Positions 31,070-52,591 of a stretch of DNA of 64,000 nt are shown in pieces; the stretch's first letter is position 1; every line of letters starts with the position of its first letter. The stretch is from sequence record OP172792; one strand, 5' to 3'. The DNA is from Escherichia phage ECO340P2. The notes under the pieces were generated by a model. That model had not been told where the DNA came from. It ran no database searches and worked only from the letters and a program-made list of their open reading frames with translations. The translations under genes were made by a program, and so were the position numbers.

Positions 31070-31070
31070 T

Positions 31071-32547: not shown

Positions 32548-32560
32548 TAAGGATCTAAAA

Positions 32561-33046: not shown

Positions 33047-33058
33047 GAGGAGATTAGT

Positions 33059-33280: not shown

Positions 33281-33300
33281 ATTTAAAACAGATGGAGGGC

Positions 33301-33525: not shown

Positions 33526-33528
33526 CTG

Positions 33529-33587
33529 TTGACAAGCTTTTTAAAAAGAGTAAGATATATCACATGAAGCGGGGAATAGTTCCCCGC
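33529..33587 (+). promoter_or_regulatory. promoter TTGACA-N16-TAAGAT + leader hairpin GCGGGGAAtagTTCCCCGC (same module as early genes, plus strand)
   Basis: hexamers and hairpin read directly; 18 nt upstream of terC RBS. Confidence 0.6.
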
Positions 33588-33604
33588 AAAGAGAGGAGAA
33601 AAGA

Positions 33605-34579: not shown

Positions 34580-34584
34580 TAGAT

Positions 34585-34610
34585 GAGCCTCCTTCGGGAG
34601 GCTATTTTAT
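34585..34610 (+). terminator. intrinsic terminator AGCCTCCttcgGGAGGCT + T-run
   Basis: 7-bp GC stem, tetraloop, ATTTTAT. Confidence 0.65.
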
Positions 34611-34621
34611 AGGAGAGACTT

Positions 34622-34972
34622 ATGAGTAATTTTGATGAAATTCAAGAACTTGTTTGGGATTTATGTGGTGATGTGGATTACGTTTCGGACTATCTTTCAA
34701 AAGTTTACCCTGGGGTAAGCGTTATGATTGTGACAAAAGATCCAATTAACTTACCTCCTAATGTGGTAGCTTGTTGTGGAAGTGGTTCAGGAGAAGTGGA
34801 GCCTGTATCTCGTTGGGAATTAACTAAAGCCGTTTCAAAACGAAACGGTGAAGTTTTGAATATTGATATCGAGCAAATATGGACTTCTCCAGCAGCCAAA
34901 TGGAATGATCCAAATGGTTGGGATTTGTTCTTTTGGGATAATGAAACTGATGATGAGGTATTTTTAAAATGA
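34622..34972 (+). CDS. hypothetical protein
   Basis: ORF with GGAGAG RBS. Confidence 0.55.
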   Translation: MSNFDEIQELVWDLCGDVDYVSDYLSKVYPGVSVMIVTKDPINLPPNVVACCGSGSGEVEPVSRWELTKAVSKRNGEVLNIDIEQIWTSPAAKWNDPNGWDLFFWDNETDDEVFLK

Positions 34973-35155
34973 AATACTTGTTGGTTGTGTTTGAAAATAT
35001 TTGTTTTGCAATAGGTTTGTTTGTTGTAATTTTTGTATTGACAAGCGTAATCAACGGCAGTAAAGTGAGTTTATACCGAGATGGAGAGCAGCTTTATTGC
35101 TTCTCTGGAGATTTCAAACACAGATGTATTAATAGTCAAAACGAGGAAAGCAAAT

Positions 35156-35593
35156 ATGAAAAAACTAGCCCTGATTTTAATTGGTTGTATCTTTTTAACA
35201 GCTTGCGAGGATGAAACAAATCCTGCACAATACCAACAACCTCCTCAACAATACGCTCAACAAGGATCTGACGGAGATACAACTATTATCAACAATGGTG
35301 GCGGCTCTAGTAGTAGCGGTGTTGGGGAGTTTGCTACAGGTATGTTGTTAGGGCATATGATGAGCGGTGGTAGTAATCGTGGTGGCGGAGATTATAACGA
35401 TAACAGAACGATTATTAATAAACATTATAACACACCTAAACCAAAGACTAATTTTTATGGTAAACCTAAACAAGAGACAAAAACTTATGAAAAGCCGAGA
35501 CAAACTTTTAAAACAAATAGTAGCTATACAACTCGTAAATCTTACAGTAGCCCTTTAAGTAAAAAGAGTTCATCTCGTAGCAAGCGACGTTAA
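35156..35593 (+). CDS. lipoprotein with Gly/Ser-rich and basic C-terminal regions
   Basis: MKKLALILIGCIFLTAC lipobox after trimming to ATG 35156. Confidence 0.6.
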   Translation: MKKLALILIGCIFLTACEDETNPAQYQQPPQQYAQQGSDGDTTIINNGGGSSSSGVGEFATGMLLGHMMSGGSNRGGGDYNDNRTIINKHYNTPKPKTNFYGKPKQETKTYEKPRQTFKTNSSYTTRKSYSSPLSKKSSSRSKRR

Positions 35594-35607
35594 TAAGGAG
35601 AAAAACA

Positions 35608-36201
35608 ATGACAATTTCTATTCGTACTTCCATCGTAGGTGTTAAAAGGTTGCCTAATGCTTTGCAAATCACACGTGCTTTGAGGGATACGTTCTCTGCT
35701 GTGGATGAGCATAAAATGCTTGATAATCTCTCAAATTGGCCCTATTTTCATTATTTTAAAAATGAAGATGACGAGTTTATAGATGCTGTTTCTTATGGTT
35801 ATGATTTCGGTAAGGAGGTTTCTCCTGAAGAATTTGTAGCTACGGTATTCCCAAATGGTTTTCCTACTCGCAGCAAACGTAAAAAAGGACCAAAAAACAA
35901 GAAACGTGCTATTAATAAAGCTACCATTTTCTTTACTGATGGGACACAGTATACGATTAAAGATTTTGAAGAAGTATCTTATACAGCAGGTGGAAATCTT
36001 TCTTTCTACACCATCAAAAAACAAAACGCTACGTTCAGCCATGTTTCTAACATGATTGAAATGTTAGTAGAAGATATTGAAAGCGTGGCTGTGTTAGGTA
36101 TGCATAAAAGCTTTTTAATTACAAATATTTCAGATTTCAGTGCACGTTTATCTAGCCCTGATTTTGAAGCCACGACCACGCATTTCACTTTTAAGGTGTA
36201 A
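35608..36201 (+). CDS. hypothetical protein
   Basis: ORF with AAGGAG RBS. Confidence 0.55.
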   Translation: MTISIRTSIVGVKRLPNALQITRALRDTFSAVDEHKMLDNLSNWPYFHYFKNEDDEFIDAVSYGYDFGKEVSPEEFVATVFPNGFPTRSKRKKGPKNKKRAINKATIFFTDGTQYTIKDFEEVSYTAGGNLSFYTIKKQNATFSHVSNMIEMLVEDIESVAVLGMHKSFLITNISDFSARLSSPDFEATTTHFTFKV

Positions 36202-36204
36202 GTT

Positions 36205-36795
36205 ATGTATACCGAGAGAGACTTGCAACTCTTGTGGTGGGAAGTGATGCAGGAAATAAAAGAAGATTTTCCTGTTTACTACAACATGTTACGTGAAGCA
36301 GGATATAAAGCTTGCGTTAGAAACAAAGTGAATAACTCTTTTGGTTGGTGCAACTACCGAGATAAAATTGTTGTTGTAAATTGGCACTTGCATAAGAACT
36401 CTACAAGAGATATGATCGTGGATACAATGAAGCATGAAATTGCTCATGCTATTGATGGTTGTATGGGTAAGTTTAGTAGGCACGGTGCTCATTGGCAAAA
36501 ACTGGCAGCAGAATTAGGGGCTAATCCTAAAGCCACTTCCAAAGAGCCGTTGAACCACGAATATAAATATGTTCTTGTTCTGGTAGATAGGTTTGCGACA
36601 AGGTGTGTTAGAGGTTATAATCGTAAACCTAATCGCATGTACCCAGGTAAGCAACCTAATATGTGGTTGAAATCAGATAAAGAAGGGACCGAAGGAAAAT
36701 TATGGTTGTATAAATGGGACGATTGGGTTAAAGTAGCTAAAGAGTACGGTGTTTCACCATATATAAGAGATGCAGAAGAGGAGAATGAAGAATGA
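36205..36795 (+). CDS. SprT-like zinc metallopeptidase-domain protein
   Basis: HEIAHAIDG (HExxH) followed by HGAHW. Confidence 0.55.
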   Translation: MYTERDLQLLWWEVMQEIKEDFPVYYNMLREAGYKACVRNKVNNSFGWCNYRDKIVVVNWHLHKNSTRDMIVDTMKHEIAHAIDGCMGKFSRHGAHWQKLAAELGANPKATSKEPLNHEYKYVLVLVDRFATRCVRGYNRKPNRMYPGKQPNMWLKSDKEGTEGKLWLYKWDDWVKVAKEYGVSPYIRDAEEENEE

Positions 36796-37904
36796 CAAGT
36801 CCATTTTTAAAAGCAGCTACTGGTGGTCAGAAGAAGTCTGAAATGAGTGTATTCGCTGCAACAACAGATGCAAGTAAATCTGTATTCGCGCCAAGCGTGT
36901 TAGATGCCAGTCCTGTTTATGCACCAGCCGCACCGCAAGAAGTCCCAGTTTTGCCTTCTATGACCCGACAAGAGATCGAAGAGATTGGGGCAGAGGCAGG
37001 AACAACCTTGCGTTCCTTGAATGCCGAGGTATTAAAACATCAACGTAGTAATCAAGGCGATCAGATGAGTGAACGACTCACAGCTTTGATTAAACAGGCA
37101 AAACAACTTGATCCAAACTCTATTAAACAAAGCAAGGGTATTACTAAACTCATTAAAAAGGTCATGGGTATGAAAGAAGACCTGTTCGGGGAGTTTGATA
37201 ATGTTAATAACCGTATTGAAGAGTTAGTAAAGAACCTTCAAATGGATATTCGCAAAGAAGAAGATTCCTTAGTATATCTTGAAAAACTACATCAAGCTAT
37301 TGGACAATATGCTGCAAGTTTGAACCGAGATATGCAGCTTCTAACAGCAACCTATGAAAAAGAAGAGCAAGCTTTGGCTGCTCTTCCAGAAGATGCAGTA
37401 GAACAGCGACAAGTGATCCGAGATACTTTGGATCTTCTGGAGATTCGTATTGCGGATTTAAAAGCATTGCGCCTACTGTGTGTCCAAATGGGACCACGTG
37501 TACAAGGTATGCAAAAAGTTTCTGCAAGCTTAATGCGATCTGCGCGTAACATAGTAAATAATGTTATCCCTGCTTACTCTGCTAACTTCTCAATGTATAT
37601 TGAGAGCTTACGTCAAATGAAAGCCGCAGAAACACAGAATAACGTTCTTGATGAATTTAACCTGGCAATTAAATTAGGTAGTGATTTGGCTACACAAAAT
37701 CAGATTGAAGCCGCAGCATTGGCTAACCGTCAAGTGTTAGATATTGATACTCTGCGACACGATCAGGAAAACTTAGTTAAAATGCTGGAAGAAACAAATC
37801 GCATCAATACAGAAGCCCGTGCTGCTCGTGTTGATTATATTAATGAAGTTCAATCTCTGGAAGACGGGATGGTAGCTGCTGTAAAACGAGGACTTGGTAA
37901 ATGA
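36792..37904 (+). CDS. helical protein, possibly TelA/KlaA-like toxic-anion-resistance family
   Basis: 370-aa largely helical protein within Ter-like cluster; family call from context and composition only. Confidence 0.35.
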   Translation: MTSPFLKAATGGQKKSEMSVFAATTDASKSVFAPSVLDASPVYAPAAPQEVPVLPSMTRQEIEEIGAEAGTTLRSLNAEVLKHQRSNQGDQMSERLTALIKQAKQLDPNSIKQSKGITKLIKKVMGMKEDLFGEFDNVNNRIEELVKNLQMDIRKEEDSLVYLEKLHQAIGQYAASLNRDMQLLTATYEKEEQALAALPEDAVEQRQVIRDTLDLLEIRIADLKALRLLCVQMGPRVQGMQKVSASLMRSARNIVNNVIPAYSANFSMYIESLRQMKAAETQNNVLDEFNLAIKLGSDLATQNQIEAAALANRQVLDIDTLRHDQENLVKMLEETNRINTEARAARVDYINEVQSLEDGMVAAVKRGLGK

Positions 37905-38095
37905 GAATCCGTGTTTATATGATTGATGATAGCTTTGGTGTCCGTTATGATGACGAAAAACGATTCGCGCCGATTAGCGGCATACATCCCCTAAGTGTTT
38001 TGGCAGCTTGTCGTGATAAATATCTCTATGAAGCTTGTAATCATTTTGGTTTTGAGCTTCTTTCAGATGTAGAGTTTAATGAGGAGGAAGGATGA
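37901..38095 (+). CDS. hypothetical small protein
   Basis: ORF, coupled. Confidence 0.5.
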   Translation: MRIRVYMIDDSFGVRYDDEKRFAPISGIHPLSVLAACRDKYLYEACNHFGFELLSDVEFNEEEG

Positions 38096-38265
38096 AAATA
38101 TTACGCGTGAATATTGAAACCGCTTGGTGCGGATGTAATGAGGTTGTGGATATTGAAATTGAAGATGATATGTCTAAAGAGGATATAGAAGATCTTGCAC
38201 ACGAAACCTTTCAGGACTATTGTAGCTATGGGTTCCATATTTTAGAGGAGGAAGAAGATGTATAA
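38092..38265 (+). CDS. hypothetical small acidic protein (57 aa)
   Basis: hand-translated ORF with GAGGAGGAAGG RBS. Confidence 0.45.
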   Translation: MKILRVNIETAWCGCNEVVDIEIEDDMSKEDIEDLAHETFQDYCSYGFHILEEEEDV

Positions 38266-38656
38266 TCCAACAGGTATTCTTTTAAAACTCACAGTAACAG
38301 ATCCTACTCTTTTCACCAAGTTAGTCAGTGGTGAAGTCTATGAAGTAATGAAAGATGACGACGGTTGGTGTTATCTTTGTGGCTACTACCTCTGTGATGC
38401 AGAAGAGTTAGAATCCATTACAACTAAAGGTTTTTATGAAGAACCAGGCTTCCGTGTGGAAACTACACAGAAACCTGATACCATTACGTTGACTCGACAG
38501 GAACTGATCACAATCATTGAAGATGCTTTTATTGATGGTTGGAATACACAAGATAATGATTGGGGTGGACCTGAAGCTTTTCTAGAACATCATAAAGCTT
38601 ACGGAGAATTTTGTGAAACCACTGTAGCTCTTGATAATCTGAAGGAGGGTTTGTAA
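38258..38656 (+). CDS. hypothetical protein
   Basis: ORF with GGAGGAAG RBS. Confidence 0.55.
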   Translation: MYNPTGILLKLTVTDPTLFTKLVSGEVYEVMKDDDGWCYLCGYYLCDAEELESITTKGFYEEPGFRVETTQKPDTITLTRQELITIIEDAFIDGWNTQDNDWGGPEAFLEHHKAYGEFCETTVALDNLKEGL

Positions 38657-39219
38657 TGGGTTGTTTTAGCTTTTTGTGTAAGGAATCGGGCAAAGCTGCC
38701 CTTTCTACTTCTTTCGACGGATCGCCTTGCTATCTCTTTCTTTTGAAAGATGGTGTTGTTATTGAAGAGATGTATGGCAACTACGATAGTTATGGTTGTG
38801 TTTTCTCTGGAAAGGAGGACGAAAATGGCGTTCGTGAACGGTTTGATTGGGTTATGGATTGGAGTAAGGTTTGTGATTTGATGCATTCCTCAAATCCAAG
38901 GGACGGTATCGCTATGGTGCTGGAAGAGTACTTTACAGGTGAAATCCCTACAGAACAATCTGACAGAGATCCTAACCAAGGTTGGGGTGATGGTGAAGAA
39001 GATCCAGATTGTTTTTTCAGCACAGAAAAGAATAAGTTTAAACGTGTTGACAACCCTTATCACAAAGTGCATAATACTCTCATTGAAACAGAAGATGACA
39101 AGATGGAAATTGAAGAAGATGATCCTCTTGTAACACTTCCTATAAGCGAGTTACAAAAGATTACTAAAGAAGCTTACGATTTGGGCTTCAAAATTGGTAG
39201 AGGAGGTATGCGTGTTTAG
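38656..39219 (+). CDS. hypothetical acidic protein
   Basis: ORF with GGAGGG RBS. Confidence 0.55.
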   Translation: MGCFSFLCKESGKAALSTSFDGSPCYLFLLKDGVVIEEMYGNYDSYGCVFSGKEDENGVRERFDWVMDWSKVCDLMHSSNPRDGIAMVLEEYFTGEIPTEQSDRDPNQGWGDGEEDPDCFFSTEKNKFKRVDNPYHKVHNTLIETEDDKMEIEEDDPLVTLPISELQKITKEAYDLGFKIGRGGMRV

Positions 39220-39484
39220 ATTCAATATTCAAGAAGAAAAGTATAAGGATTTACCTGTTCCTTTCGAAGATCTTGACGTAGGGGATACATTCATGTATTA
39301 TGCTGCCTATGAAGATGCAGGGTTGGATACTTACATTAATTTGGTGTTCATTAAAAGTTCTCCAAACAGCGCAATCTGCATCAGTGGATCGCAACGAGGT
39401 TATACACATTGTATCCCGCCAGATACAAATATGGTGGAAGTAGATTTAGAAGTTACCAATATCACACTTAAGAAGGAGAAATAA
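39194..39484 (+). CDS. hypothetical protein, paralog of 40506..40775
   Basis: shared DLDVGDTF motif and C-terminal ..VT(N/G)ITLK. Confidence 0.55.
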   Translation: MVEEVCVFRFNIQEEKYKDLPVPFEDLDVGDTFMYYAAYEDAGLDTYINLVFIKSSPNSAICISGSQRGYTHCIPPDTNMVEVDLEVTNITLKKEK

Positions 39485-39485
39485 T

Positions 39486-40280
39486 ATGTCCGAGAAAATC
39501 AGCCTGAAAAAACGTCAAGAAAACCTTGCTTTCTCTCTGAAAAAGAATAAGAACCTGAATGAAGGTAAGATTGTTCTTCGTGTAGCATGTGCTCTAGATA
39601 TTTCTGGTAGTATGCATGGTCTATATGCTCGTGGAGTAGTGAGTGATTTTGTAGGTAAACTGCTCCCTTTTGGTATGCTGTTCGACGATAATGAACAAAT
39701 TGATATGTGGGCCTTCAATACAAGTTCTCAAGAGCTTACTCCAGCAACAGCAGACGTTTACGATGATTATGTTGGTAAATGTATGCGTAATGTTCGTATC
39801 GGAGGTGGAACAAATTACGCCCCTGTAATGGCAGATATCTACGATGAGTATTTTGGCACTGTTACCAAATATATTACCACTAAACAAGTGGTACAAGAGG
39901 AGGCTCCAAAGAAAGGCTTCTTTAATCGTCTGCTTGGTAAAACTGAAACAGTATCTGTAGAGCGTGAAAAGGTTGTAGCTGTATCTGAACCAGGTGCTGA
40001 CGTTACCCCTGGTGTTGTATTCTTCCAGACGGATGGTGAGAATGGTGATCCTAGTGCTGTTCGTCGTCTTATTGAAGAGAATAAGAATAAACCTATTTAT
40101 TGGTTCATGGTTGGCGTCGGTAATGAGAAGTTTGGCTTCCTGAAAGAACTGGCAAATGCTTATGATAATGTTGGTTTTATTGGCATTAAAGATTTAGACT
40201 TGACAGATTCAGAGCTTTATGACAAACTCTTATCTGAAGAGTTCGGAGAGTGGGTTGTTAAAGTAGGTGCTAAAAAATGA
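39486..40280 (+). CDS. von Willebrand factor A (vWA) domain protein, TerY-like
   Basis: MIDAS motif ALDISGSMHG; N-terminal KISLKK shared with TerD gene. Confidence 0.65.
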   Translation: MSEKISLKKRQENLAFSLKKNKNLNEGKIVLRVACALDISGSMHGLYARGVVSDFVGKLLPFGMLFDDNEQIDMWAFNTSSQELTPATADVYDDYVGKCMRNVRIGGGTNYAPVMADIYDEYFGTVTKYITTKQVVQEEAPKKGFFNRLLGKTETVSVEREKVVAVSEPGADVTPGVVFFQTDGENGDPSAVRRLIEENKNKPIYWFMVGVGNEKFGFLKELANAYDNVGFIGIKDLDLTDSELYDKLLSEEFGEWVVKVGAKK

Positions 40281-40525
40281 TCGACGAGCTTGCCTCTCAA
40301 GTCGTAGAAAATTATTGGCGCGAGAGAGAAGCTTTCATTATGCGCAGTCTCAAAGAATATTTCATTGGGACTGTGCGGATGGAAGATATTGTAAGTAGAG
40401 TAGAGATTCATGTATGGCCTGATTATGAAGAATGGGTTGACAAAGAAAATGAAAATGCTATAATTCTTCGTATATACAAACCGGAGATAACATTAGGAGG
40501 AAGAAGTGTTAAACTTCGAAATTGA
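40277..40525 (+). CDS. hypothetical protein
   Basis: ORF, coupled. Confidence 0.5.
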   Translation: MIDELASQVVENYWREREAFIMRSLKEYFIGTVRMEDIVSRVEIHVWPDYEEWVDKENENAIILRIYKPEITLGGRSVKLRN

Positions 40526-40775
40526 TGAGCAAAAAATAAATAAACGATGCCTTACCATTAAAGATTTGGATGTAGGAGATACTTTCGTCTATGAAAATGC
40601 ATTTGACGAAAATGGTTTAGACCTTAGTGAAGTCATTGTTTATTTAAAAGTAGATGATGGGGAAAATGATTATTCTGCTGTAGAATTAAACCATCATGCA
40701 CAATTAGTAGCAATCCAAAACACATCTAAGCTTTTGGAAGTAGAATTGACTGTAACTGGTATTACACTTAAATAA
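40506..40775 (+). CDS. hypothetical protein, paralog of 39194..39484
   Basis: DLDVGDTF motif. Confidence 0.55.
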   Translation: MLNFEIDEQKINKRCLTIKDLDVGDTFVYENAFDENGLDLSEVIVYLKVDDGENDYSAVELNHHAQLVAIQNTSKLLEVELTVTGITLK

Positions 40776-40790
40776 TAGAGGAGACAAAAG

Positions 40791-41393
40791 ATGACTGATA
40801 AAATTTCCCTGAAAAAAGGCTCTAGCGAAAAAATTTCCCTGAAGAAAGTTGCTCCGGCTCTGAAAGAACTGCGCCTGGAATTCTCTTGGAAATCTGATTC
40901 TAAACTGGATCTGGATGTAAGTGCACTGGTTTGTCGTCATAATGCCGCTGGCAATCCTGAAATGCTGTCTGCACGTCATCTGGTTTGCTATGCTAACAAG
41001 TTTGATCCTGAACGTTCTACCTTTGCTGGTGACGATGTTCGTGATGGGACTGGCAGCATGGAGCAGATTGATATTACTCTGGCTAAAATCTCTCCCGATG
41101 CACAAGAGATTGCCTTTGTTCTGACCATTGATGATGATACAGGTCTGAAACGTTTTGGTCATGCTTCTGAAGGTATGCTTAAAATCTTCGACTCCGAGTG
41201 TAATGTGGAAATTCTGGATTTTGACTTCCTGGCTCCTGAAGTAGCTGGCAACACAATCTGCCACGTGGCTTCCTTGGTTCGTGAAGATGGTGAATGGAAG
41301 CTGAAAGCATATGGTGTAGGTAAAGCTGGTCTGGATATTTGTGATGTGGTGATGGCCTTCGGTGGTAAAAAAGAATGGTATGAATGTCCATAA
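40791..41393 (+). CDS. terD: TerD-domain stress protein
   Basis: KISLKKG...ISLKK, DLDVSAL, GDDVRDGTG, MLKIFDSE, C-terminal WK..A.G.G.AGL. Confidence 0.75.
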   Translation: MTDKISLKKGSSEKISLKKVAPALKELRLEFSWKSDSKLDLDVSALVCRHNAAGNPEMLSARHLVCYANKFDPERSTFAGDDVRDGTGSMEQIDITLAKISPDAQEIAFVLTIDDDTGLKRFGHASEGMLKIFDSECNVEILDFDFLAPEVAGNTICHVASLVREDGEWKLKAYGVGKAGLDICDVVMAFGGKKEWYECP

Positions 41394-41411
41394 TAATTAA
41401 CAAATGATTTT

Positions 41412-41493: not shown

Positions 41494-42015
41494 TTGCTGA
41501 TAAAAAACTTTGTAACAGTTGCGTTACTATCCTTAACTGCTTTTACATTTACACCTGTTGTGGCGAAAGCCGAAGCTGCAAACGTAAAAACCGCTAAAGT
41601 AGTTCACAAATGTACAAAGCAATATAATGATAAAATTCTATTAGCTTGTGCAATTTACGCAGAAGGTCGCGGTCTGGGTAAAAAAGGAATGAATGCCGTT
41701 GGGAATGTGGTAATCAATAGAAGAAATGATGCCTACTTTCCTAACACAGTCAGAGGAGTCTTGTTCCAGAAAGGACAATTTTCATATGCGAAAACTTTTA
41801 ACGTAACAGAGAAAGATAAGTGGCAGGAAGCAAAAGCAATAGCGGAGCGTTTACTTTATTTAGAGAAACATTTTCCTGAATTGCGATCTGTTTTAGATGT
41901 TACTAAAGGTGCTCTATACTTCAAGAAACGGAATATAAGGACACACTGGGAACGCGATATGCGTCTTGTTTATCGAGATAAAGTGCATGGTTTCTATCTA
42001 CCAAAGGAGAGTTAA
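41494..42015 (+). CDS. secreted cell-wall hydrolase, SleB/CwlJ-like (Hydrolase_2)
   Basis: signal peptide; CAIYAEGRG...GNVVINR...VRGVLFQKGQFS; TTG start after AGGAGG. Confidence 0.6.
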   Translation: MLIKNFVTVALLSLTAFTFTPVVAKAEAANVKTAKVVHKCTKQYNDKILLACAIYAEGRGLGKKGMNAVGNVVINRRNDAYFPNTVRGVLFQKGQFSYAKTFNVTEKDKWQEAKAIAERLLYLEKHFPELRSVLDVTKGALYFKKRNIRTHWERDMRLVYRDKVHGFYLPKES

Positions 42016-42016
42016 A

Positions 42017-42301
42017 ATGCAAGAAGATAATACTGTTGTTGTAGCAAGTTACCTGGTTGTCGGTCTTACCGAAGAGGATGTATACTACACCCGTAAACAT
42101 TTGGAAGCATACGCTACTTTGTTTATGGAAGATGAAAAGGATGTAGATAAATATAGCATTGATATGATCAACGACAGTATTTATCCTTGTATGGTTCTTA
42201 AAGTAGATGCTGTGTTGTGGGAGCGTTTTGCAAGGACTCATGATGCTGTAGAATGCTCCGCAGTAATGTCTCAAAACAACATTTTAGGGGAGATTCACTG
42301 A
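42017..42301 (+). CDS. hypothetical protein
   Basis: track ORF trimmed to ATG 42017. Confidence 0.5.
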   Translation: MQEDNTVVVASYLVVGLTEEDVYYTRKHLEAYATLFMEDEKDVDKYSIDMINDSIYPCMVLKVDAVLWERFARTHDAVECSAVMSQNNILGEIH

Positions 42302-42531
42302 TGGGAGAAGTCATTGAAGTCAATTTTCGCACTAAACAAAAAGTGCAAAAGTATGTCGTTATTAAAAACATTTGCGTTGTCTGCTTCAATACAGTAATAT
42401 ACGACTCACGACGCGGAGAAAACGAAAATGAACCTTACATTGAAATTTCTAAGAACAAAGGTCAATGTATTTGTAAGAACTGTGCAGTAGCTATTAAGGA
42501 GGTTGTAAATGAAAACGCTTGGGACCAATGA
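42301..42531 (+). CDS. hypothetical Cys-containing small protein
   Basis: CVVC...CKNC pairs; ATG 42301. Confidence 0.5.
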   Translation: MGEVIEVNFRTKQKVQKYVVIKNICVVCFNTVIYDSRRGENENEPYIEISKNKGQCICKNCAVAIKEVVNENAWDQ

Positions 42532-42718: not shown

Positions 42719-43282
42719 ATGATTTATTATATTACTCCCTATCTGACAGGAAATATCGGCAAGGCTATTAATGAAGCCATTGCCGTTCTTCCAGATGATA
42801 GTTGGGTGTGTTTAAGAGATACTGATACAATGTTCCTTCTGCCTGATCAACCATCTATGTTGGAAGATCTTGTTATGTCAAACCCACCTTTTGATGTAAT
42901 AGGTGCAACTTGTAATAGACTAGGTAGTGGTTATCAGCTTTTCTCTAACCAAATTAATGATGACCCAGACATTCTAAACCATATAGAATATGCTAAAATT
43001 GCACGGGAATATCATAAAACAAACGTTGAAGAAGTTCCTTTTGGAACACCTTTAGCTGGTTTCTTTTTGCTTTTTAGAAAATCATTGTGGAATGAGATTC
43101 CTTTCGAAGAAAAATCTATCCAATTTGACTTAATTTTCTCTCGCACTTTACATGAAAAAGGAAAGAGGTTAGGATTGATGCGGGGAATGTATCTGTTCCA
43201 CATTTATAGGTTAGGTCAAACAAATCCTCAACGGTCTATAAACCATTTATTACACTGTCACGATCACAGTAAAACTATTTAG
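42719..43282 (+). CDS. possible glycosyltransferase (DxD-like DTD motif)
   Basis: LRDTDTMF motif; adjacent to other GT genes; weak. Confidence 0.35.
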   Translation: MIYYITPYLTGNIGKAINEAIAVLPDDSWVCLRDTDTMFLLPDQPSMLEDLVMSNPPFDVIGATCNRLGSGYQLFSNQINDDPDILNHIEYAKIAREYHKTNVEEVPFGTPLAGFFLLFRKSLWNEIPFEEKSIQFDLIFSRTLHEKGKRLGLMRGMYLFHIYRLGQTNPQRSINHLLHCHDHSKTI

Positions 43283-43290
43283 GAGAGAAA

Positions 43291-43974
43291 ATGGAAAATA
43301 TTAAAATCGGAGTAGGTGTTATCACTGTAGGTGTCCGTCCACTTAAAGATTACCTTGTAACAGATCCACGTGCAGATTTTCGAGTATTCAACGATCCAGA
43401 TCGTAAAGGTGTAGCTTATGCCAGGAATGAACTTATGCACCAGTTCTATGAAGAAGGTTATGATTATTGGTTTATTTTTGACGATGATTGTTACCCAGTT
43501 ATGGAGGGATGGGAAACATATTTTGTAGACCAAGCTATTTCTGGAAGATGGGATTTCTTTGGTATGCCGGAGTATTTCAAAGATAAAGTTGTCGGAAGCA
43601 AAGGAGAAGTTATTCTCTGGGAACTTGCAATGTGTCAATTTGCAATGTATTCTCGTGCCGTTGTTGAGAAGATGGGTTATTTCCGCCCTTACACTCACGG
43701 TTATGGTTTTGAAGATGCCGAATGGGGACACCGTTTGAAAGCTGCTGGTTTGAATCATGGTATTCAGGCAACACCTTGTCCACTTCGCATTATGGCTTAT
43801 ATTCACCCAGACGATGTTTTTGGAAACAATCCTATGCCTTTTGCTAATCTGACTAAAGAAGAGAAAGAAGCCGCTATTGGGATTAACTGGGAAGAATATA
43901 AAGCGTCTTTAGAGGATATTAAAAATGGGAAAATCCGACTTTCCTATGAGGAGGCAATGGCACATGTCAAATAA
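43291..43974 (+). CDS. GT-A fold (family 2-like) glycosyltransferase
   Basis: FIFDDDCYP and GYGFEDAEWGHRL. Confidence 0.55.
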   Translation: MENIKIGVGVITVGVRPLKDYLVTDPRADFRVFNDPDRKGVAYARNELMHQFYEEGYDYWFIFDDDCYPVMEGWETYFVDQAISGRWDFFGMPEYFKDKVVGSKGEVILWELAMCQFAMYSRAVVEKMGYFRPYTHGYGFEDAEWGHRLKAAGLNHGIQATPCPLRIMAYIHPDDVFGNNPMPFANLTKEEKEAAIGINWEEYKASLEDIKNGKIRLSYEEAMAHVK

Positions 43975-44911
43975 AAAATGGTCTAAACTAAAAATTGATG
44001 CAAAACCTCACAGCGGTTGTGATTATCATCGTATTGTTATGCCATTTGACAACAATAATTTTCAACCTAAAAAAGATATTGTTGTGTTTAACCGTATTCA
44101 CTCTAAAGGAGCAGAATACGTTCTGTCTTTGAAACGTCAAGGTGTTAAGATTGTTGTAGATTTAGATGATTTCTACCAACTTAATCCAGAACACTATTTA
44201 GCAAGTTTATATGAGTCAAACACCCATGCTATTGTAGCTATGGTTAAGCTTGCAGATGTGGTTATTGTGACTACGGAATACTTGGCATATAAAATCCGAC
44301 ATTTAAATAGAAATGTTGTTGTGATCCGAAATGCACTTCCTTTTGATAGTGGACAGTTCACTTTGTCAAATGATCGTTCGTCCGGTACCCCTGTTGTATG
44401 GGCTGGCGGCGCTAGTCATGAACCTGATTTACGACTGGTTTCTAATACTTTTGATGATGAACTTCTTACTATTGCAGGATATGAAGCTTCACAGAGCATC
44501 ACAGGGCAAGAATGGATTAAGATCCGTAGAAATTTACCAAATGCTAAATATAAAGCTGCCGTAAAAGATTTAGATAATTACATGAGTGTTTATGAGAGTC
44601 ATGCTATTGCTATAGCTCCTTTGGTAGATAATGATTTTAATAATTGTAAAAGTAATCTCAAAATCCTGGAAGCTGGAGCAAAAGGTATTCCGATTGTTTG
44701 TTCTAAGGTGTTACCTTATTTTAACCCTGTAGATGCTCGCGCTGTTGCTTATGCAGAGAATAAAGCAGAGTGGCATTACGAAATTGTTAAGCTTCTTCGC
44801 AATCCAAACTATCGGGAAGATCGTGGTTTGTTCTTGGCGGAACATGTTCGAACACATTATAATCTGGCAGATGCAAACGAGTTGCGACGCCAGGTTATTG
44901 AAAGTTTGTAG
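43964..44911 (+). CDS. GT-B fold glycosyltransferase (paralog 1)
   Basis: NCKSNLKILEAGAKGIPIVCS resembles GT4 E..G.P motif; paralogous to next gene. Confidence 0.55.
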   Translation: MSNKKWSKLKIDAKPHSGCDYHRIVMPFDNNNFQPKKDIVVFNRIHSKGAEYVLSLKRQGVKIVVDLDDFYQLNPEHYLASLYESNTHAIVAMVKLADVVIVTTEYLAYKIRHLNRNVVVIRNALPFDSGQFTLSNDRSSGTPVVWAGGASHEPDLRLVSNTFDDELLTIAGYEASQSITGQEWIKIRRNLPNAKYKAAVKDLDNYMSVYESHAIAIAPLVDNDFNNCKSNLKILEAGAKGIPIVCSKVLPYFNPVDARAVAYAENKAEWHYEIVKLLRNPNYREDRGLFLAEHVRTHYNLADANELRRQVIESL

Positions 44912-44918
44912 GTGAAGT

Positions 44919-45863
44919 ATGGGACAAATAATTCTTGACAATCGTAACGGAATCAATTATAGTGTCTGCGATTTCCATAGGGTAGTGCTGCCTTACTCAA
45001 GGCAGTTCTCTTCACAACCTAAACACAACGTTTTCGTTTTTAACGGAGTGCCAACAAAAGGTAAAGAGGGCTTTTTAGCCCTTAAAAACCTAGGCTTTAA
45101 AATGGTTATGGATTTGGATGACTCTTTAGTTATTCCAAAAGGACACATGTTAGAAGGTATTTTTGAATCAGGTATTCGTGAACATTTAAAATGGTTTTTA
45201 GAGCACAGTGACCTTGTTACAACTACGACACCTGCCTTGCAAGTTGAACTTTCACAATACAATGATAATGTGCACATAATCCCTAATGGACTTCCTTACG
45301 ATGAAGGTCAATTTGTGTTGACCCGTGATCGCTACTCCAAATCTCCTTTGGTCTGGGCTGGAAGTGAAACACATAAACAAGATTTGGCTATCTTGCCTGA
45401 TTTTGGTAAAGATCTTACAATATGTGGTTTTCGTAGGGATTCTGAAGTTTTAAGTAGTCGTGAATGGTCTGTAATCAGAGAAAATGTAGCACCAACTTGT
45501 GTTTATGAAGGTGTAAGACCATATTCCAACTACATGGAATCTTACGATGGTCATCAAATCAGTCTTGCACCATTAATCGATAACGTGTTTAATAATGCAA
45601 AAAGCAATCTTAAAATTCTTGAGGCAGGTGCTAAAGGTTTACCTTTAATCTGTTCTCCTCGTGAGAACTATCATACACAAGAGTTTAAAGATTTGTTATT
45701 CTTTGCTGAAACACCTTCCGAGTGGAAAGATATTACGGAATACTTATTAAGTGCTCCCGATGTTTGCATGGAGAAAGGATTAGCATTAGCTAAGTATGTC
45801 AGGACTCATTATCACATTGATGTGTTGAATGAGCGTCGTAGACTTTTATTTGAGGAGCTATAA
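44919..45863 (+). CDS. GT-B fold glycosyltransferase (paralog 2)
   Basis: NAKSNLKILEAGAKGLPLICS; N-terminal CDFHRVVLPY parallels CDYHRIVMPF. Confidence 0.55.
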   Translation: MGQIILDNRNGINYSVCDFHRVVLPYSRQFSSQPKHNVFVFNGVPTKGKEGFLALKNLGFKMVMDLDDSLVIPKGHMLEGIFESGIREHLKWFLEHSDLVTTTTPALQVELSQYNDNVHIIPNGLPYDEGQFVLTRDRYSKSPLVWAGSETHKQDLAILPDFGKDLTICGFRRDSEVLSSREWSVIRENVAPTCVYEGVRPYSNYMESYDGHQISLAPLIDNVFNNAKSNLKILEAGAKGLPLICSPRENYHTQEFKDLLFFAETPSEWKDITEYLLSAPDVCMEKGLALAKYVRTHYHIDVLNERRRLLFEEL

Positions 45864-46141
45864 TGATTAACACTTTTGATTTTGAATACACCACTCGTAA
45901 TGGGAAAACTTTAGTCGTGGAGGTGGATTACTATTATGAAGAACCTAATCCACTTTCTCGTGAAAGCGATTGGGACTACCACGGAGGGCTTTTAATTGAC
46001 GGTATTCGTTTTTATGAAGGATCTACAGAAGTTTTTGAAAAAGATTTAAATGTAACTGTGGCAGAAATTGCTTTTCAATTTAGAAAGCACATGGAAGAAC
46101 TAGAAGCAGAATATATGATGGAGACTAACGAACCATTTTAA
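45863..46141 (+). CDS. hypothetical protein
   Basis: ORF, coupled. Confidence 0.5.
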   Translation: MINTFDFEYTTRNGKTLVVEVDYYYEEPNPLSRESDWDYHGGLLIDGIRFYEGSTEVFEKDLNVTVAEIAFQFRKHMEELEAEYMMETNEPF

Positions 46142-48464: not shown

Positions 48465-49259
48465 TTGAGCAAGTTGAACACACTTGATCAATATTACACT
48501 AACCCCGCTTATGCGGGGTTCTTATGTGATAAGATCAAAGAAATTTTTGGAGAGGAAGCTAACTACGTAGAACCATCTGCGGGAGAAGGAGCTTTCTCTT
48601 CTTGTTTTAAAAACATAACTTCTTTTGATATTGACCCTAAGTTTGAAGATTGTATTGAGGCAGATTTTTTAGCCCAATCTGTTGAGTCTGTTGGTAGTGT
48701 AACTGCTTTTGTCGGTAATCCTCCATTTGGAAAAAATGCTAGTCTTGCCATTAAATTCTTTAACCATTGTGCTGAAATGCTAGATAACGAAGGTGGTATT
48801 TGTTTTATCTTGCCTCGCACATTTCAAAAAATCTTTTTTGCACACAAACTAAATCCCCACATGCATCTTCTTTACGAAGAAGAATGTCCAAAAGGATCTT
48901 TTATTCTTCATGGAGAACCTTGGGATGTTCCTTGTGTATTCCAGATATGGATTAAACGCAACGAGAAGCGTTCTCCCGTTGTTTTAGGAGAAAATCGACT
49001 ATTTGTATTAGGCAACAGTAAAGACTACGACATAGCCGTTAGGAGAGCGGGAGCAAGTGCAGGTAAAGTGTTATCAGAAGAAGATTCTTTATCTGAAGCG
49101 TCTACCTATTTTTTAAAAGCCTTGACTTCTGATCTTAAAACGCGTATCATTGAGGCTTACCCGTTACTTAAAGCTGAAGCTAGTAAAACTGCGGGAGTAA
49201 GAAGTTTAAGTTTAAAAGAACTTCAGTGGGTTCTGGAGAACATTAGAAAGGAGGAATAG
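48465..49259 (+). CDS. DNA N6-adenine methyltransferase (orphan)
   Basis: QYYTNP, EPSAGEGAF (motif I), VGNPPFGK (motif IV); TTG start; no adjacent endonuclease. Confidence 0.7.
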   Translation: MSKLNTLDQYYTNPAYAGFLCDKIKEIFGEEANYVEPSAGEGAFSSCFKNITSFDIDPKFEDCIEADFLAQSVESVGSVTAFVGNPPFGKNASLAIKFFNHCAEMLDNEGGICFILPRTFQKIFFAHKLNPHMHLLYEEECPKGSFILHGEPWDVPCVFQIWIKRNEKRSPVVLGENRLFVLGNSKDYDIAVRRAGASAGKVLSEEDSLSEASTYFLKALTSDLKTRIIEAYPLLKAEASKTAGVRSLSLKELQWVLENIRKEE

Positions 49260-52200
49260 TGAGTAAGTTTACATGGGATATTGAAGCAAACGGATTGTTG
49301 AATAATGACACTATTGATTATTTGGCTAGTCCTTATCGTCTCAAAGACACATTTCAAATGCACTGTATTGTCTTAGAGAACCATGAAACAGGAGAAATAG
49401 TAGCTTTCCACGATGGCCCTAAATACATTTTTGATGGGCGTCCTTATGAAGAATCAGATGGTAAATACACGTATGTTCTTAAAGAGTATGTGGCGCAAGA
49501 TTACACACATTTTCAACTAAAAGATTTCCCAGACTTTATTAATCATGAAGGTTATTTTCAAGACAAGCCGGAATATCTGGTTGAAATGGCTGTGGCACAT
49601 AACGGTATCAACTACGACTGGTTGGCTACAAAACTGTTTTACGGATTGGATTACAGTGTTAAATATAATACATGGGGTAAAAGCAAGGTAAAACTTATTG
49701 ACTCCTTGATTTTGAGTAAAGTGTTGAACCCAGATCGAAAGATTGAGGGCAAATCAGGACATAGCTTGGCAGCACTTTCTCGAAAGGCAGGTGGTGATGT
49801 AAAAATAGATTTCCGTAAAGAGATTCCAGAAGAAGATCGATTTAAGACTTTTGCTGCGGATATGCTTTATTACTGTATCTATGACAACAAAGCCAATACG
49901 AGCGTATATAATTACCTTATGGAAGAATGGGGTGATTATGATAAATGGGAAGGTCCGTTTGAACTTGAACAACGTGTAGCAGACATTATTACACGCCAGG
50001 AACACCGTGGGTTTGCTTTTAACATGAAGCAAGCAGAAGAGAACCTTGCTTTTTTGGATGCCGAAATGGAGCGTCTTCGTTTACTCGTTGAGCCTATTTT
50101 GCCACCTAAGCCAGCAACAAAAGGTTATCTTAAGGCTTTTATCCCACCTAAGTTGCAAATTAAAAAGAACTTAGAACCAACTAACCATATGATCAATTTT
50201 GCTAAGAAACATGATGGTCATTTGGAAGAGAGAGATGGGGACTGGTGGTTAGTTATGTTGGGGAAAGAGTGGAAACTGCCAGTTGCAGCAGACGAACCTT
50301 TATGTGATCCTCATATCCCTGCAACATTGAATGATACAACCCATATTAAAAACTGGCTTGTAGGTTTAGGTTGGGTACCATCAGAATATAAAGATAAAGA
50401 CTTGACTCTTAAATCTGGCACCAAGATTAAAAAGAGTGAGGAAGAACTTCAGAAAGGTATTCGAGCTTACGTTGAGCAAACTCTATCTTCTAATTTTTGT
50501 CAGGATCGTTGTGATCACCTTGAGTGCACACCGGAAACCTTAGAAAGGAAAATTCAAGAGCGTATAGCAAAAGGTAAAGGTCGCGGTCTTAAAGTGTTGA
50601 CTAACCCATGTTTTACCAAAGGTCAGGAAAAAGAAATTTGTCCTAACCTGCAAGCTTTGGGTGAGAAATTTCCTTATGCTACACAGATTGTAGAATACTT
50701 AACGTATAAACATCGTAGGAACTCTATTTTAGGTGGTGGTGCTGATTGGGAAGAAGACGAAGAAGATCAAGAATACGATAAAGGTTTCTTAGCCGCAGTA
50801 AGGGCGGATGGTCGTATTCCTACCCCAGCCGCTACATGTGATGCTGCAACCTCTCGTATGAAGCATAGGTCTGTCGCTAATATTCCTCGTGTTACATCTT
50901 TGTTTGGATGGGAGATGCGTAACCTGTTTGGTGTGGAGGTTCCTAAATACTTCCAGATCGGCTACGACTTCGACTCTTTGGAAGCAAAAATTGAATCACA
51001 CTACTGTGTGCCGATGGATGCTCAAGCTTTGACTCGTAAAGGTTGGGTAGGATATCACGACCTGAAGGAAGGGGATGAGATTTTAGGGTACAATGCTGAA
51101 ACAGGTCTGAAAGAATGGACTAAAGTAAAAGGTAAGGTCTTCTATAAAAATAGTAAGACGTTTGAGATTAAAGGGAAATCACACACTTACCGTGCAACAG
51201 CAGATCACCGTTGGTATGTTAATACCCGTAGTAAAGGGAATACTTATGTGCCTAAAGTCAGAACAACTGCCGAGCTTTGCACAGGAGATAACATTATTTG
51301 TAATGCTCCATTTAATATGGAACAAGATCAGGTAAATAGTTTAACTTCTGTTCAACAAGGTAAATGGGATGTTCCGTGGGTAGAACGTGTAGTTAATATG
51401 TCTCATGCCGAGCGTGTAGCTTTCTTGGAAGGTTTCTTGATTGCAGATGGTTACTGGCACGAACATAAACAAAAACCTGTTTGGCGTTGGGCGCAGAACC
51501 CAGGTGAACTTTTTGAAGCAGCTTTAACTGCCTCGTACCTGGTGCATGGAGGCAATATCTCTGTAGCTTTCAATACAAAAGAGCAGAAAGTAAAAGTGGC
51601 AACATTGACTAACCGCTCTCACATTCCTGTTCAAAGTTTGACTATTGAAGAGTGGGGTGTAGAGGATGTTTGGTGTCCACAAACAGAACTTGGTACGTGG
51701 GTCATGCGTCAGAAAGACTGCATTACCATCACAGGAAACTGTTGGCGGTACGAGCCGGAGCCACACGAGTATTGTAACGCTCTGTTGTTAGAGAAACCTA
51801 ATGATGTTCACACAATGATGGCAAAACGTATCACTGAAACTATCGGACGTAAATTTGAACGTAGTCCTGCTAAATCTGTTAAGTATGGTATTACCTATGG
51901 TGCACAAGCCGACAAGGTTGCTAAAACAATTGGTAGCGATAAGTTTACAGGTCAATTAGTGTTTGATGCTTTCTGGGAAGCTGCATTCCCATTGGCGCGT
52001 CTTAAAGAACGTTTAAACGATTTCTGGGTTAAGACTGGTAAACAATATGTTTTGGGTATTGACGGTCGTAAGGTTCCTACTCGTTCTGCTCACGCGATTC
52101 TTAACTCTCTGTTCCAAAGTGGTGGGGTTATCTGTGCTAAACGTGCAATGGTTATTTATGACGACATGATCGAAGAAGAAGGACTAAGTGTTGACTTCTT

Positions 52201-52591
52201 TAAAGATGACTGGAAGAATAAAGACTTCGTGCAACAAATGATTGCATATCACGATGAAGCCCAGCTTGAAGTTTCTCGTAACCTTGTAGAATTTAAATGG
52301 TTTTCACCTGAATCATTAGGTTGGAAGAAAGTAGACGATCCTGAAGAACAAAAGAAAATTGATAAAGAATGCCTTGCTAAAGTTGAAGAATGGAAGCATA
52401 ATAAGGAAAAAGAGACGGGACAAATTTGGGCTAACATTCATGAATCTCCCAAAGGTGGATGGTTTACAGCCTATAGTCGGGCAGGTGAACTTGCTGCCTT
52501 AGCTGTTACTAAGGCTGGAGAATTTTACAATCTTAATGTTCAGCTTACTGCCGGATATGATGTGGGTAATTCTTGGGCGTCCTGTCACTGA
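49259..52591 (+). CDS. family A DNA polymerase with 3'-5' exonuclease domain, interrupted by putative intein
   Basis: Exo I FTWDIEANGL; motif A-like GYDFDSLEAKI; motif B-like RSPAKSVKYGITYGAQ; 245-aa insertion between them; GTG start. Confidence 0.75.
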   Translation: MSKFTWDIEANGLLNNDTIDYLASPYRLKDTFQMHCIVLENHETGEIVAFHDGPKYIFDGRPYEESDGKYTYVLKEYVAQDYTHFQLKDFPDFINHEGYFQDKPEYLVEMAVAHNGINYDWLATKLFYGLDYSVKYNTWGKSKVKLIDSLILSKVLNPDRKIEGKSGHSLAALSRKAGGDVKIDFRKEIPEEDRFKTFAADMLYYCIYDNKANTSVYNYLMEEWGDYDKWEGPFELEQRVADIITRQEHRGFAFNMKQAEENLAFLDAEMERLRLLVEPILPPKPATKGYLKAFIPPKLQIKKNLEPTNHMINFAKKHDGHLEERDGDWWLVMLGKEWKLPVAADEPLCDPHIPATLNDTTHIKNWLVGLGWVPSEYKDKDLTLKSGTKIKKSEEELQKGIRAYVEQTLSSNFCQDRCDHLECTPETLERKIQERIAKGKGRGLKVLTNPCFTKGQEKEICPNLQALGEKFPYATQIVEYLTYKHRRNSILGGGADWEEDEEDQEYDKGFLAAVRADGRIPTPAATCDAATSRMKHRSVANIPRVTSLFGWEMRNLFGVEVPKYFQIGYDFDSLEAKIESHYCVPMDAQALTRKGWVGYHDLKEGDEILGYNAETGLKEWTKVKGKVFYKNSKTFEIKGKSHTYRATADHRWYVNTRSKGNTYVPKVRTTAELCTGDNIICNAPFNMEQDQVNSLTSVQQGKWDVPWVERVVNMSHAERVAFLEGFLIADGYWHEHKQKPVWRWAQNPGELFEAALTASYLVHGGNISVAFNTKEQKVKVATLTNRSHIPVQSLTIEEWGVEDVWCPQTELGTWVMRQKDCITITGNCWRYEPEPHEYCNALLLEKPNDVHTMMAKRITETIGRKFERSPAKSVKYGITYGAQADKVAKTIGSDKFTGQLVFDAFWEAAFPLARLKERLNDFWVKTGKQYVLGIDGRKVPTRSAHAILNSLFQSGGVICAKRAMVIYDDMIEEEGLSVDFFKDDWKNKDFVQQMIAYHDEAQLEVSRNLVEFKWFSPESLGWKKVDDPEEQKKIDKECLAKVEEWKHNKEKETGQIWANIHESPKGGWFTAYSRAGELAALAVTKAGEFYNLNVQLTAGYDVGNSWASCH
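51005..51739 (+). mobile_element. putative intein (245 aa) with LAGLIDADG-like motif inside the polymerase
   Basis: begins with Cys after motif A, TADH block, LEGFLIADGYW, ends ..ITGN followed by Cys; removal restores normal A-to-B spacing. Confidence 0.5.

Follow-up and report, generated by a model that had tools for sequence, protein, structure and literature searches.

What do four adjacent glycosyltransferase (GT) genes of a lytic coliphage modify? The question arises at positions 42,719 to 45,863 of a 64,000-nucleotide stretch, hereafter the window, of the genome of Escherichia phage ECO340P2 (sequence record OP172792), where four open reading frames (ORFs), GT1 to GT4, were found on the + strand (Table 1). 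A preliminary description made from the letters alone had likened them to phage DNA glycosylation systems and named surface polysaccharide modification as an alternative. Our analysis leads, with somewhat less than even confidence, to a different reading, in which the soluble enzymes of this cassette would build a short, probably rhamnose-containing glycan on an acceptor other than DNA, most likely virion proteins. Nucleotide matches of the 3.1-kb cassette region identify the phage as a Phapecoctavirus (a phAPEC8-like myovirus, Stephanstirmvirinae) and a coliphage. Sixty-four of the 67 matching phage genomes, mainly Phapecoctavirus, are 95-99% identical across this region. The nearest relative, Shigella phage SF1-1 (96.4% identity), was annotated by profile- and structure-based methods and serves here as a proxy for the genome parts beyond the window. 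All four genes already carry the RefSeq label "glycosyltransferase".

The four enzymes of the cassette

GT3 and GT4 are paralogues, 41% identical over 303 amino acids (aa; E=1e-76), and each matches the same PHROG family with E<=1e-145. The parallel N-termini noted in the preliminary description, CDYHRIVMPF and CDFHRVVLPY (C-D-[YF]-H-R), were verified in the pair, as was a second shared motif, NNCKSNLKILEAGAKGIP and NNAKSNLKILEAGAKGLP. Both C-D-[YF]-H-R and KSNLKILEAGAKG are part of the invariant or near-invariant core of this GT-B family, in which R21, P25, D67, D68, K228 and K232 are invariant and H20 and E235 nearly so. An AlphaFold2 model of GT4 (predicted local distance difference test, pLDDT, 93.7; predicted TM-score, pTM, 0.91) has the two-Rossmann-domain GT-B fold. 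Foldseek returns 190 PDB matches for it at E<=1e-3, and the top matches are all GT-B enzymes of the CAZy GT4 type. The nearest solved structures are MshA, PglA, GlgM, BshA, GtfC/Gtf3, SdgB and PimA (E ~1e-9 to 1e-7), and PimB', TreT and sucrose-phosphate synthase are also among the GT-B fold and profile matches.

The resemblance to the retaining GT-B enzymes of the CAZy GT4 type extends to the best structural matches of GT4 (E ~1e-9, TM 0.55-0.64) and to weak Pfam matches over its C-terminal domain, Glyco_trans_1_2 (24.7 against a cut-off of 25) and Glyco_trans_1_4 (22.6 against 27). However, identity to these enzymes is merely 12-15%, and all Pfam scores lie under the gathering cut-offs. The EX7E motif is replaced by K-S-N-L-K-I-L-E, in which the second glutamate (E235) alone is kept, and the near-invariant N-terminal H-R of the phage family is not a feature of the CAZy GT4 type. 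PDB sequence and profile searches gave only weak tails of that type or noise.

GT3 is the ancestral copy and GT4 the derived tandem duplicate, since the GT-Bs found outside the two-copy phages, namely the single GT-B of Klebsiella phage KP2025 (63%) and those of temperate phages (44-51%), are all closer to GT3 than to GT4 (36-40%). Two copies occur only in Phapecoctavirus, the phiWec group, Justusliebigvirus and Citrobacter phage Tr1, and Klebsiella myoviruses carry one. The GT-B is apparently missing from Vequintavirus, because identity drops below 60% in just 15 records, with no Escherichia vequintavirus among them. The first in-frame ATG of GT3, at 43925 (43925-44911), gives 328 aa; the start at 43964 is more likely because a GAGGAGG ribosome-binding site precedes it, the PHROG alignment begins there and the SF1-1 annotation is the same. 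GT-B relatives also occur as domains within giant ORFs (~900 to >1,700 aa) of metagenome-assembled genomes (MAGs) from Gammaproteobacteria and of a Dechloromonas MAG.

GT2 is confirmed as a DxD enzyme of GT-A fold by its AlphaFold2 model (pLDDT 89.3), by its invariant FDDD (D64-D65-D66) and YG.ED motifs and by Foldseek matches to viral and cellular GT-A enzymes, which include STIV A197, vaccinia H3, TarP, TarS and ColGalT. GT1 gave no direct match in Pfam, NCBIfam, PDB sequence/profile or hhalign searches, and a relationship between GT1 and GT2 was not detectable with hhalign. Its assignment as GT-A-like is supported indirectly, because D34-x-D36 is invariant across 21 homologues and because members of its family, which comprises 980 clusters at 50% identity in an exhaustive profile search, match Pfam Glycos_transf_2 (PF00535) or Glyco_tranf_2_3 (PF13641) over the homologous domain. 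Orthologues of GT1 are 70% identical in KP2025 and 41% in a Serratia prophage. Family members are often fused to TOD1/MUCI70-like or GT2 domains. In many of them the GT1 domain forms the C-terminal half of a ~400-aa protein, the N-terminal half being a TOD1/MUCI70-like GT domain, and one fusion joins it to a Methyltransf_24 domain. The division into two GT-A-like genes and two paralogous GT-B genes made in the preliminary description thus stands. Direct assignment by sequence failed, with Pfam giving only sub-threshold matches for GT2 to GT4 (TAGT, GT2 and Glyco_transf_7C in the case of GT2) and none for GT1, whose relatives do match GT-A families. NCBIfam gave no match for any of the four.

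All four proteins are soluble and lack transmembrane segments (maximum Kyte-Doolittle(19) value <=1.65) and signal segments. Three of them (GT1, GT2 and GT4) are net acidic. The genes are tightly packed: the spacing from GT1 through GT4 to a 92-aa ORF is 8, -11, 7 and -1 nt, with overlapping stop and start codons. A primase/helicase gene begins at 46154, 12 nt past the 92-aa ORF, in agreement with the position just upstream of the replication genes first described. A scan of the region for promoters and terminators found no convincing operon boundary.

Distribution of the cassette and a putative rhamnose supply

Parts of the cassette recur in unrelated phages. The syntenic site of KP2025 holds only GT1 and a GT3-like GT-B. 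A prophage of Serratia sp. M24T3 carries GT1-like (41%), GT2-like (37%) and GT3-like (51%) genes with their order kept, in the arrangement lysis genes, GT1, GT2, GT3, HNH, TerS, TerL. In Pseudomonas prophages, Nin-type and replication genes are followed by a Big_2 protein, GT2-like (41%) and GT3-like (44%) genes, a metallopeptidase, TerS, TerL and portal. In lambdoid metagenomic contigs the order is Q antiterminator, HicAB, GT2-like, GT3-like, a holin-like protein and lysozyme, with the terminase ~4 kb downstream. GT2 homologues from these Serratia, Pseudomonas and lambdoid temperate phages are 37-42% identical to GT2. More distantly, Streptomyces phage KimJongPhill has a UDP-glucose dehydrogenase, a methyltransferase, a GT-B, TerS, TerL and portal in succession. 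GT homologues therefore lie directly before packaging genes in three of the four groups (Serratia, Pseudomonas and Streptomyces), the lambdoid contigs being the exception. The temperate-phage cassettes as a whole precede the terminase and follow either Nin genes (accompanied by Q in lambdoid contigs) or lysis genes.

A search of IMG/VR with the motif KSNLK[IV]LE found at least 572 contigs, and 25 dereplicated loci were examined for their neighbours. Those closest by comprise hexapeptide acetyltransferases, GT2 enzymes, an epimerase/dehydratase, primase-helicases, terminases and prohead protease; a terminase adjoins in 3-4 of the 25. Thymidylate-synthase, TET and C5-methyltransferase families were not seen beside these 25 loci, nor were base-modification genes seen in the flanks of the Serratia, Pseudomonas and lambdoid loci. 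The cassette is thus a mobile, phage-specific module of variable length, which would build glycans during lytic development with no need for base hydroxymethylation.

A candidate sugar for this module comes from elsewhere in the genome. In SF1-1, gp65 is RmlC (TIGR01221, 225 bits; NCBIfam equivalog cut-off 156) and gp66 is RmlD (TIGR01214, 239 bits; cut-off 224). Both genes lie outside the window, and we infer their presence in ECO340P2 from SF1-1. RmlD and GT4 are co-distributed, giving matching phage-name counts in tblastn searches (Escherichia 106, Campylobacter-labelled 5, Phapecoctavirus 3, Justusliebigvirus 3, Klebsiella 8-10). All Enterobacterales make dTDP-4-keto-6-deoxyglucose for enterobacterial common antigen (ECA) via RffH/RffG; RmlC and RmlD should therefore suffice for dTDP-L-rhamnose in any such host. 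It is thus reasonable to suppose that at least one GT is a rhamnosyltransferase that uses dTDP-L-rhamnose. No ORF of fitting size for RmlA or RmlB is present in the window. They are reported elsewhere in the genome for most phapecoctaviruses, but neither the SF1-1 annotation nor the inspected RefSeq regions of ESCO5 list them.

Candidate acceptors of the glycan

In the mechanism that we propose, the genes of four soluble cytoplasmic GTs would share a transcript with the replication genes. The two DxD GT-A enzymes, which would be metal-dependent, and the GT-B paralogues would act in sequence to yield a short oligosaccharide. At least one step would probably use dTDP-L-rhamnose, with RmlC and RmlD converting the dTDP-4-keto-6-deoxyglucose of the host. 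The number of sugars added would scale with the cassette, from GT1 and GT3 in Klebsiella phages, through GT2 and GT3 or GT1, GT2 and GT3 in temperate phages, to GT1-GT4 here, a set that arose by duplication of GT3. The acceptor would not be hydroxymethylated DNA; most likely, one or more virion proteins would be glycosylated in the cytoplasm before or during assembly. Our preference for virion proteins is tentative and has three grounds: virions are the other product of lytic growth besides genomes, homologous cassettes directly precede packaging or structural genes in three of the four temperate-phage and actinophage groups, and there are precedents in chloroviruses and actinobacteriophages.

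In the chlorovirus PBCV-1, the virus's own rhamnose-nucleotide synthesis and several cytoplasmic GTs place a rhamnose-containing glycan on the capsid protein. The likeness lies in virus-encoded rhamnose synthesis combined with several cytoplasmic GTs, whereas these are eukaryotic viruses that use UDP/GDP-sugar pathways and unrelated multi-domain GTs, and the analogy is a functional one only. Among actinobacteriophages, GTs encoded by Che8, Corndog and Myrna reportedly decorate capsid and tail proteins (work by Freeman et al. in 2023). These systems resemble the cassette in having GT sets without DNA-modification partners, and GT-B homologues directly precede terminase or structural genes in the Serratia, Pseudomonas and Streptomyces phages. 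Unlike them, the cassette studied here belongs to a phage of a Gram-negative host, sits in a replication module and is known from its genes alone, and orthology of its families to the mycobacteriophage enzymes is not established. PMC12582341 and PMC11256854 cite the work of Freeman et al., and PMC4691112 reviews autonomous capsid glycosylation in chloroviruses and giant viruses.

Several points weigh against virion proteins as the acceptor, including those that speak for DNA and those that limit the evidence against it, which are given with that reading below. The cassette of this phage lies in the replication module, away from the structural genes, and a primase-helicase adjoins in 3 of the 25 IMG/VR loci. 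Co-transcription, the rhamnose donor, sequential action and the acceptor have all been deduced and none directly observed. Literature searches on Stephanstirmvirinae returned no experiments on these GTs, on the nucleosides of virion DNA or on glycoproteins of the virion, and the particles of phi92 and phAPEC8 are not known to have been reported to contain glycosylated proteins.

The main rival to a virion-protein acceptor, in itself unlikely, is modification of the host envelope during lytic growth, and to this extent the surface-polysaccharide alternative of the preliminary description survives. The GTs would act on lipid-linked or periplasm-bound precursors of the lipopolysaccharide (LPS) core, ECA, O-antigen or capsule and thereby change or hide the glycans that the phage itself uses as receptors, which would limit superinfection or the loss of progeny on cell debris, and RmlC and RmlD would additionally drain the ECA precursor pool. 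This would fit the reported receptors of Stephanstirmvirinae, ECA and the LPS outer core, and surface-polysaccharide modification has been suggested for ZCKP1 (PMC6141743). The enzymes themselves offer further support, since the GT-B fold matches include PglA, PimA and PimB', which use lipid-linked acceptors, and GT2 matches TarP and TarS, wall-teichoic-acid GTs of which TarP is prophage-encoded. Genes for lysis or for cell-wall functions are also found close to the cassette, both in the window and in the Serratia prophage and lambdoid contigs. However, GT1-GT4 lack transmembrane and signal segments and have no GtrA, GtrB, GtrC, Wzx or Wzy-like partners; the temperate-phage cassettes are in the late (lytic) region rather than at the lysogenic-conversion site by the integrase; and remodelling the envelope within one short lytic cycle would presumably be of limited benefit. 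Prophage seroconversion systems (gtrABC, O-antigen GTs) are alike in that phage-encoded GTs change host glycans used as phage receptors, but they rely on a membrane GtrA flippase, a GtrB bactoprenol GT and a polytopic GtrC, lie by the integrase and are expressed in the lysogen. Here, four soluble proteins without such partners are found in a lytic phage or a late region, and no GtrA or GtrB Pfam match was found for the window. Classical O-antigen seroconversion is therefore rejected, as its architecture is absent.

Acceptors of another kind are a rather doubtful possibility: a small molecule, such as the product of a Ter-type phosphoribosyltransferase/HAD-phosphatase cluster, a host protein modified for takeover or anti-defence, or else RNA. 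Small-molecule GTs (MshA, BshA, GlgM, TreT and sucrose-phosphate synthase) are indeed among the best GT-B fold matches, and a biosynthetic cluster of Ter-like genes precedes the cassette by 3-12 kb on its strand. That cluster, however, does not accompany the temperate-phage cassettes, a GT number that varies between two and four suits stepwise glycan building better than single-sugar marking of a host target, and these families offer no supporting precedent.

Glycosylation of the phage DNA, the reading to which the locus was first likened, now appears improbable. In this reading the GTs would put sugars, possibly rhamnose, on phage DNA, either in a T4-like manner on a hydroxymethylated pyrimidine or as a sparse, motif-restricted or chemically new modification that leaves the tested restriction enzymes unblocked. 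Olsen et al. 2020 noted that phapecoctaviruses and phi92-like phages have a dTDP-rhamnose pathway and put forward the rhamnosylation of hydroxymethylated nucleotides (PMC7552041), an idea taken up again in PMC10844046. In its favour, the cassette lies in the replication module near the primase/helicase, an N6-adenine (N6A) methyltransferase and DNA polymerase. GT2 weakly matches the Pfam family TAGT (PF20691) and phrog_842 (beta-glucosyl-HMC-alpha-glucosyltransferase) and has the R...DDD...ED residues of phage DNA GT-A enzymes, and the best GT-B fold matches, BshA and MshA, are also reported for phage DNA GT-B enzymes. True phage DNA GT-A and GT-B enzymes share the TarP, BshA and MshA fold neighbours and R...DDD...ED (Pyle et al., bioRxiv 10.1101/2023.12.21.572611), and fold data consequently do not discriminate between acceptors. 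Against it, the TAGT score of GT2 is 19.3 bits against a cut-off of 27.5 (homologues, 16.5-21.2 bits), and a fold search of BFVD returned generic phage GT-A enzymes, with TAGT proteins only at ranks 35-39. T4 alpha-GT and beta-GT are absent both from the GT-B profile matches to PDB (E<=1) and from the Foldseek PDB top 50. The net acidic character of GT1, GT2 and GT4 is weak evidence against DNA binding.

No base-hydroxymethylation pathway was detected. A ThyA-type hydroxymethylase, a TET/JBP dioxygenase and a C5-methyltransferase were not found in the SF1-1 annotation or in 20 scanned proteins of about 260, a coverage that is not exhaustive for TET or hydroxymethylase proteins; nor were TET/JBP dioxygenase and C5-cytosine methyltransferase found among the window proteins. 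The sole "thymidylate synthase" of SF1-1, gp55, is ThyX-like (Pfam Thy1, E=1.7e-8; TIGR02170) and has no ThyA/Thymidylat_synt match. Small temperate phages and the 25 viral contigs likewise carry homologous cassettes with no base-modification genes nearby.

Restriction evidence points the same way. In a restriction fragment length polymorphism screen, the DNA of three Tevenvirinae alone was left uncut by HincII; the phages that it digested included five phapecoctaviruses and two of the phi92-like group (PMC10269720). The window has 60 HincII sites, and this evidence concerns one enzyme and other phages. The phi92-like phages, whose GT-B is 76-77% identical, are "exceptionally susceptible" to restriction-modification (RM) systems "despite a putative dTDP glycosylation machinery" (PMC8594841); these in vivo data concern phi92-like and Vequintavirus phages rather than Phapecoctavirus. 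Several restriction sites are also strongly avoided. Across the 126 kb of SF1-1, CTGCAG is observed 0 times against 24.6 expected, GGATCC 0 against 18.2 and GCATGC 0 against 10.3. GGCGCC, GTCGAC, CAGCTG and CCATGG are also at zero, and CGATCG occurs once against 17 expected (126 kb). For the hexamers at zero, ~3-15 copies each would be expected in the window and up to ~25 in the 126 kb of SF1-1. The observed-to-expected ratios of GGCC, GTAC and CCGG are 0.26-0.43 in the window and 0.33-0.42 across the 126 kb of SF1-1, and counts of GATC, EcoRI, EcoRV and HincII sites are close to expectation. Such extreme avoidance would mark DNA as open to type II enzymes rather than shielded by bulky adducts.

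Comparison with known DNA-glycosylating phages supports this assessment. T-even phages glycosylate 5-hydroxymethylcytosine (hmC) with the T4 alpha- and beta-glucosyltransferases, and RB69 carries arabinosyl-hmC. As here, phage-encoded soluble GTs, GT-B enzymes among them, are found among DNA-metabolism genes and use host nucleotide sugars. The T-even pathway, however, needs a ThyA-family dCMP hydroxymethylase, a dCTPase and a kinase, none of which the non-exhaustive scan found. The enzymes studied here have no detectable sequence similarity or top-50 fold match to the T4 GTs, and T-even DNA resists HincII, whereas phapecoctavirus DNA is cut and this genome avoids restriction sites. The TET/5mYOX-associated clusters with TAGT enzymes (Pyle et al., bioRxiv 10.1101/2023.12.21.572611) resemble the cassette in some respects: GT-A and GT-B enzymes build mono- to trisaccharides stepwise, the GT-A residues R...DDD...ED and the TarP, BshA and MshA fold neighbours recur, and the clusters are frequently found in temperate phages near structural genes. 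Yet they carry a C5-methyltransferase and 5mYOX/TET, or ThyS, none of which was seen near the cassette or its homologues, and GT2 stands apart by its sub-threshold TAGT score and the low rank of TAGT proteins in the viral fold search. The cassette therefore fits neither T4-like nor TET-linked DNA glycosylation, and T4-style glycosylation is disfavoured. Less probable still is a sparse or chemically new nucleic-acid glycosylation that dispenses with 5-hydroxymethylpyrimidine and may target specific motifs, genome ends or another nucleophile, which would escape the restriction evidence because HincII and the tested restriction systems would not register it, and which would explain the cassette beside replication genes here and the primase-helicases in some metagenomic phages.

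Neighbouring genes and biological meaning

The surroundings of the cassette contain several further features (Table 1). The 92-aa ORF that follows GT4 has a 48% identical counterpart at the same position in KP2025, and no homologue was seen beside the temperate-phage cassettes. Together with three small upstream ORFs, it was considered as a conserved small partner or acceptor; these ORFs are rejected as obligatory components because they are syntenic in related myoviruses only. The small conserved ORF just 5' of GT1, with two CxxC pairs, is syntenic in KP2025 and missing from the temperate-phage cassettes. The SleB-like cell-wall hydrolase ~700 bp upstream of GT1 has a hydrophobic N-terminal segment resembling a signal or signal-arrest-release sequence, and the phage also encodes a T4-lysozyme-like protein and spanins elsewhere.

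Table 1. Coordinates of the cassette genes and surrounding features in the window
Feature	Position	Strand	Description
GT1	42719-43282	+	187 aa, small DxD GT-A-like glycosyltransferase, phrog_14179 (E=3e-112)
GT2	43291-43974	+	227 aa, GT-A fold glycosyltransferase, FDDD and YGFED motifs, phrog_2456
GT3	43964-44911	+	315 aa, GT-B glycosyltransferase, phrog_7162
GT4	44919-45863	+	314 aa, GT-B fold glycosyltransferase, diverged tandem duplicate of GT3, phrog_7162
92-aa ORF	45863-46141	+	acidic, phrog_4240; overlaps GT4 stop codon; syntenic ORF
Small conserved ORF	42301-42531		phrog_15360, zinc-ribbon-like
SleB-like cell-wall hydrolase	41494-42015		Pfam Hydrolase_2 (E=2e-17)
N6-adenine DNA methyltransferase	48465-49259		putative; between primase/helicase and DNA polymerase
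DNA polymerase I	49259-52591		contains intein-like insertion
Polymerase insertion	about 51008-51739		244 aa, in frame (residues 584-827)
Ter-type cluster	~30400-41400	+	stress/biosynthesis cluster
TerD-like protein	40791-41393		Ter cluster
VWA protein	39486-40280		Ter cluster
TelA-like protein	36792-37904		Ter cluster, "tellurite resistance" protein
TerC-like membrane protein	33605-34579		Ter cluster
Phosphoribosyltransferase	31720-32547		Ter cluster
SprT/M48-like peptidase, phosphatase, hydrolase			further members of Ter cluster

The putative methyltransferase downstream of the primase/helicase is assigned from a weak Eco57I-methylase Pfam match and from the N6A methyltransferase annotation in relatives. 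Several small "DNA methyltransferase" annotations in SF1-1 are without Pfam support, and one of these proteins is an XkdF-like protease. The insertion in DNA polymerase I begins C-VPMDAQ and ends in TITGN followed by C; it is missing from the SF1-1 polymerase, which is otherwise 99-100% identical. SF1-1 has a free-standing HNH endonuclease gene directly after pol, and the window has no such gene. The Ter-type cluster lies upstream of the GTs on the same strand, in a lytic phage. Finally, some genomes with 96-99% identity to this coliphage group are on deposit under the names of Acinetobacter, Pseudomonas and Campylobacter phages, and also within a "Proteobacteria bacterium" MAG. Contamination or a wrongly recorded host, and not a genuine host range, probably accounts for these labels.

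Earlier work had already annotated these genes as GTs and had reported both the DNA-rhamnosylation idea and its clash with RM sensitivity. New here are the failure to find a hydroxymethylation partner, the restriction-site avoidance, the GT1-GT2-GT3 set as a mobile module that small temperate phages share and carry in their late region, and the polarity of the duplication, with GT3 as the ancestral copy. Phapecoctavirus and phi92-like phages, which have found use in therapeutic cocktails, rank among the broad-host-range coliphages isolated most often. The statement that they "rhamnosylate their DNA" recurs in several papers, although their sensitivity to restriction contradicts a protective modification, and the genome seems to rely on restriction-site avoidance rather than on DNA modification. 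The combined results shift the question to a non-DNA acceptor. If the host envelope is the target, the cassette would represent a new receptor-masking strategy of the lytic cycle. If virion proteins are the target, it would give phages of Gram-negative bacteria their first described system for virion glycosylation and would bear on the immune recognition, stability and pharmacokinetics of therapeutic phages.

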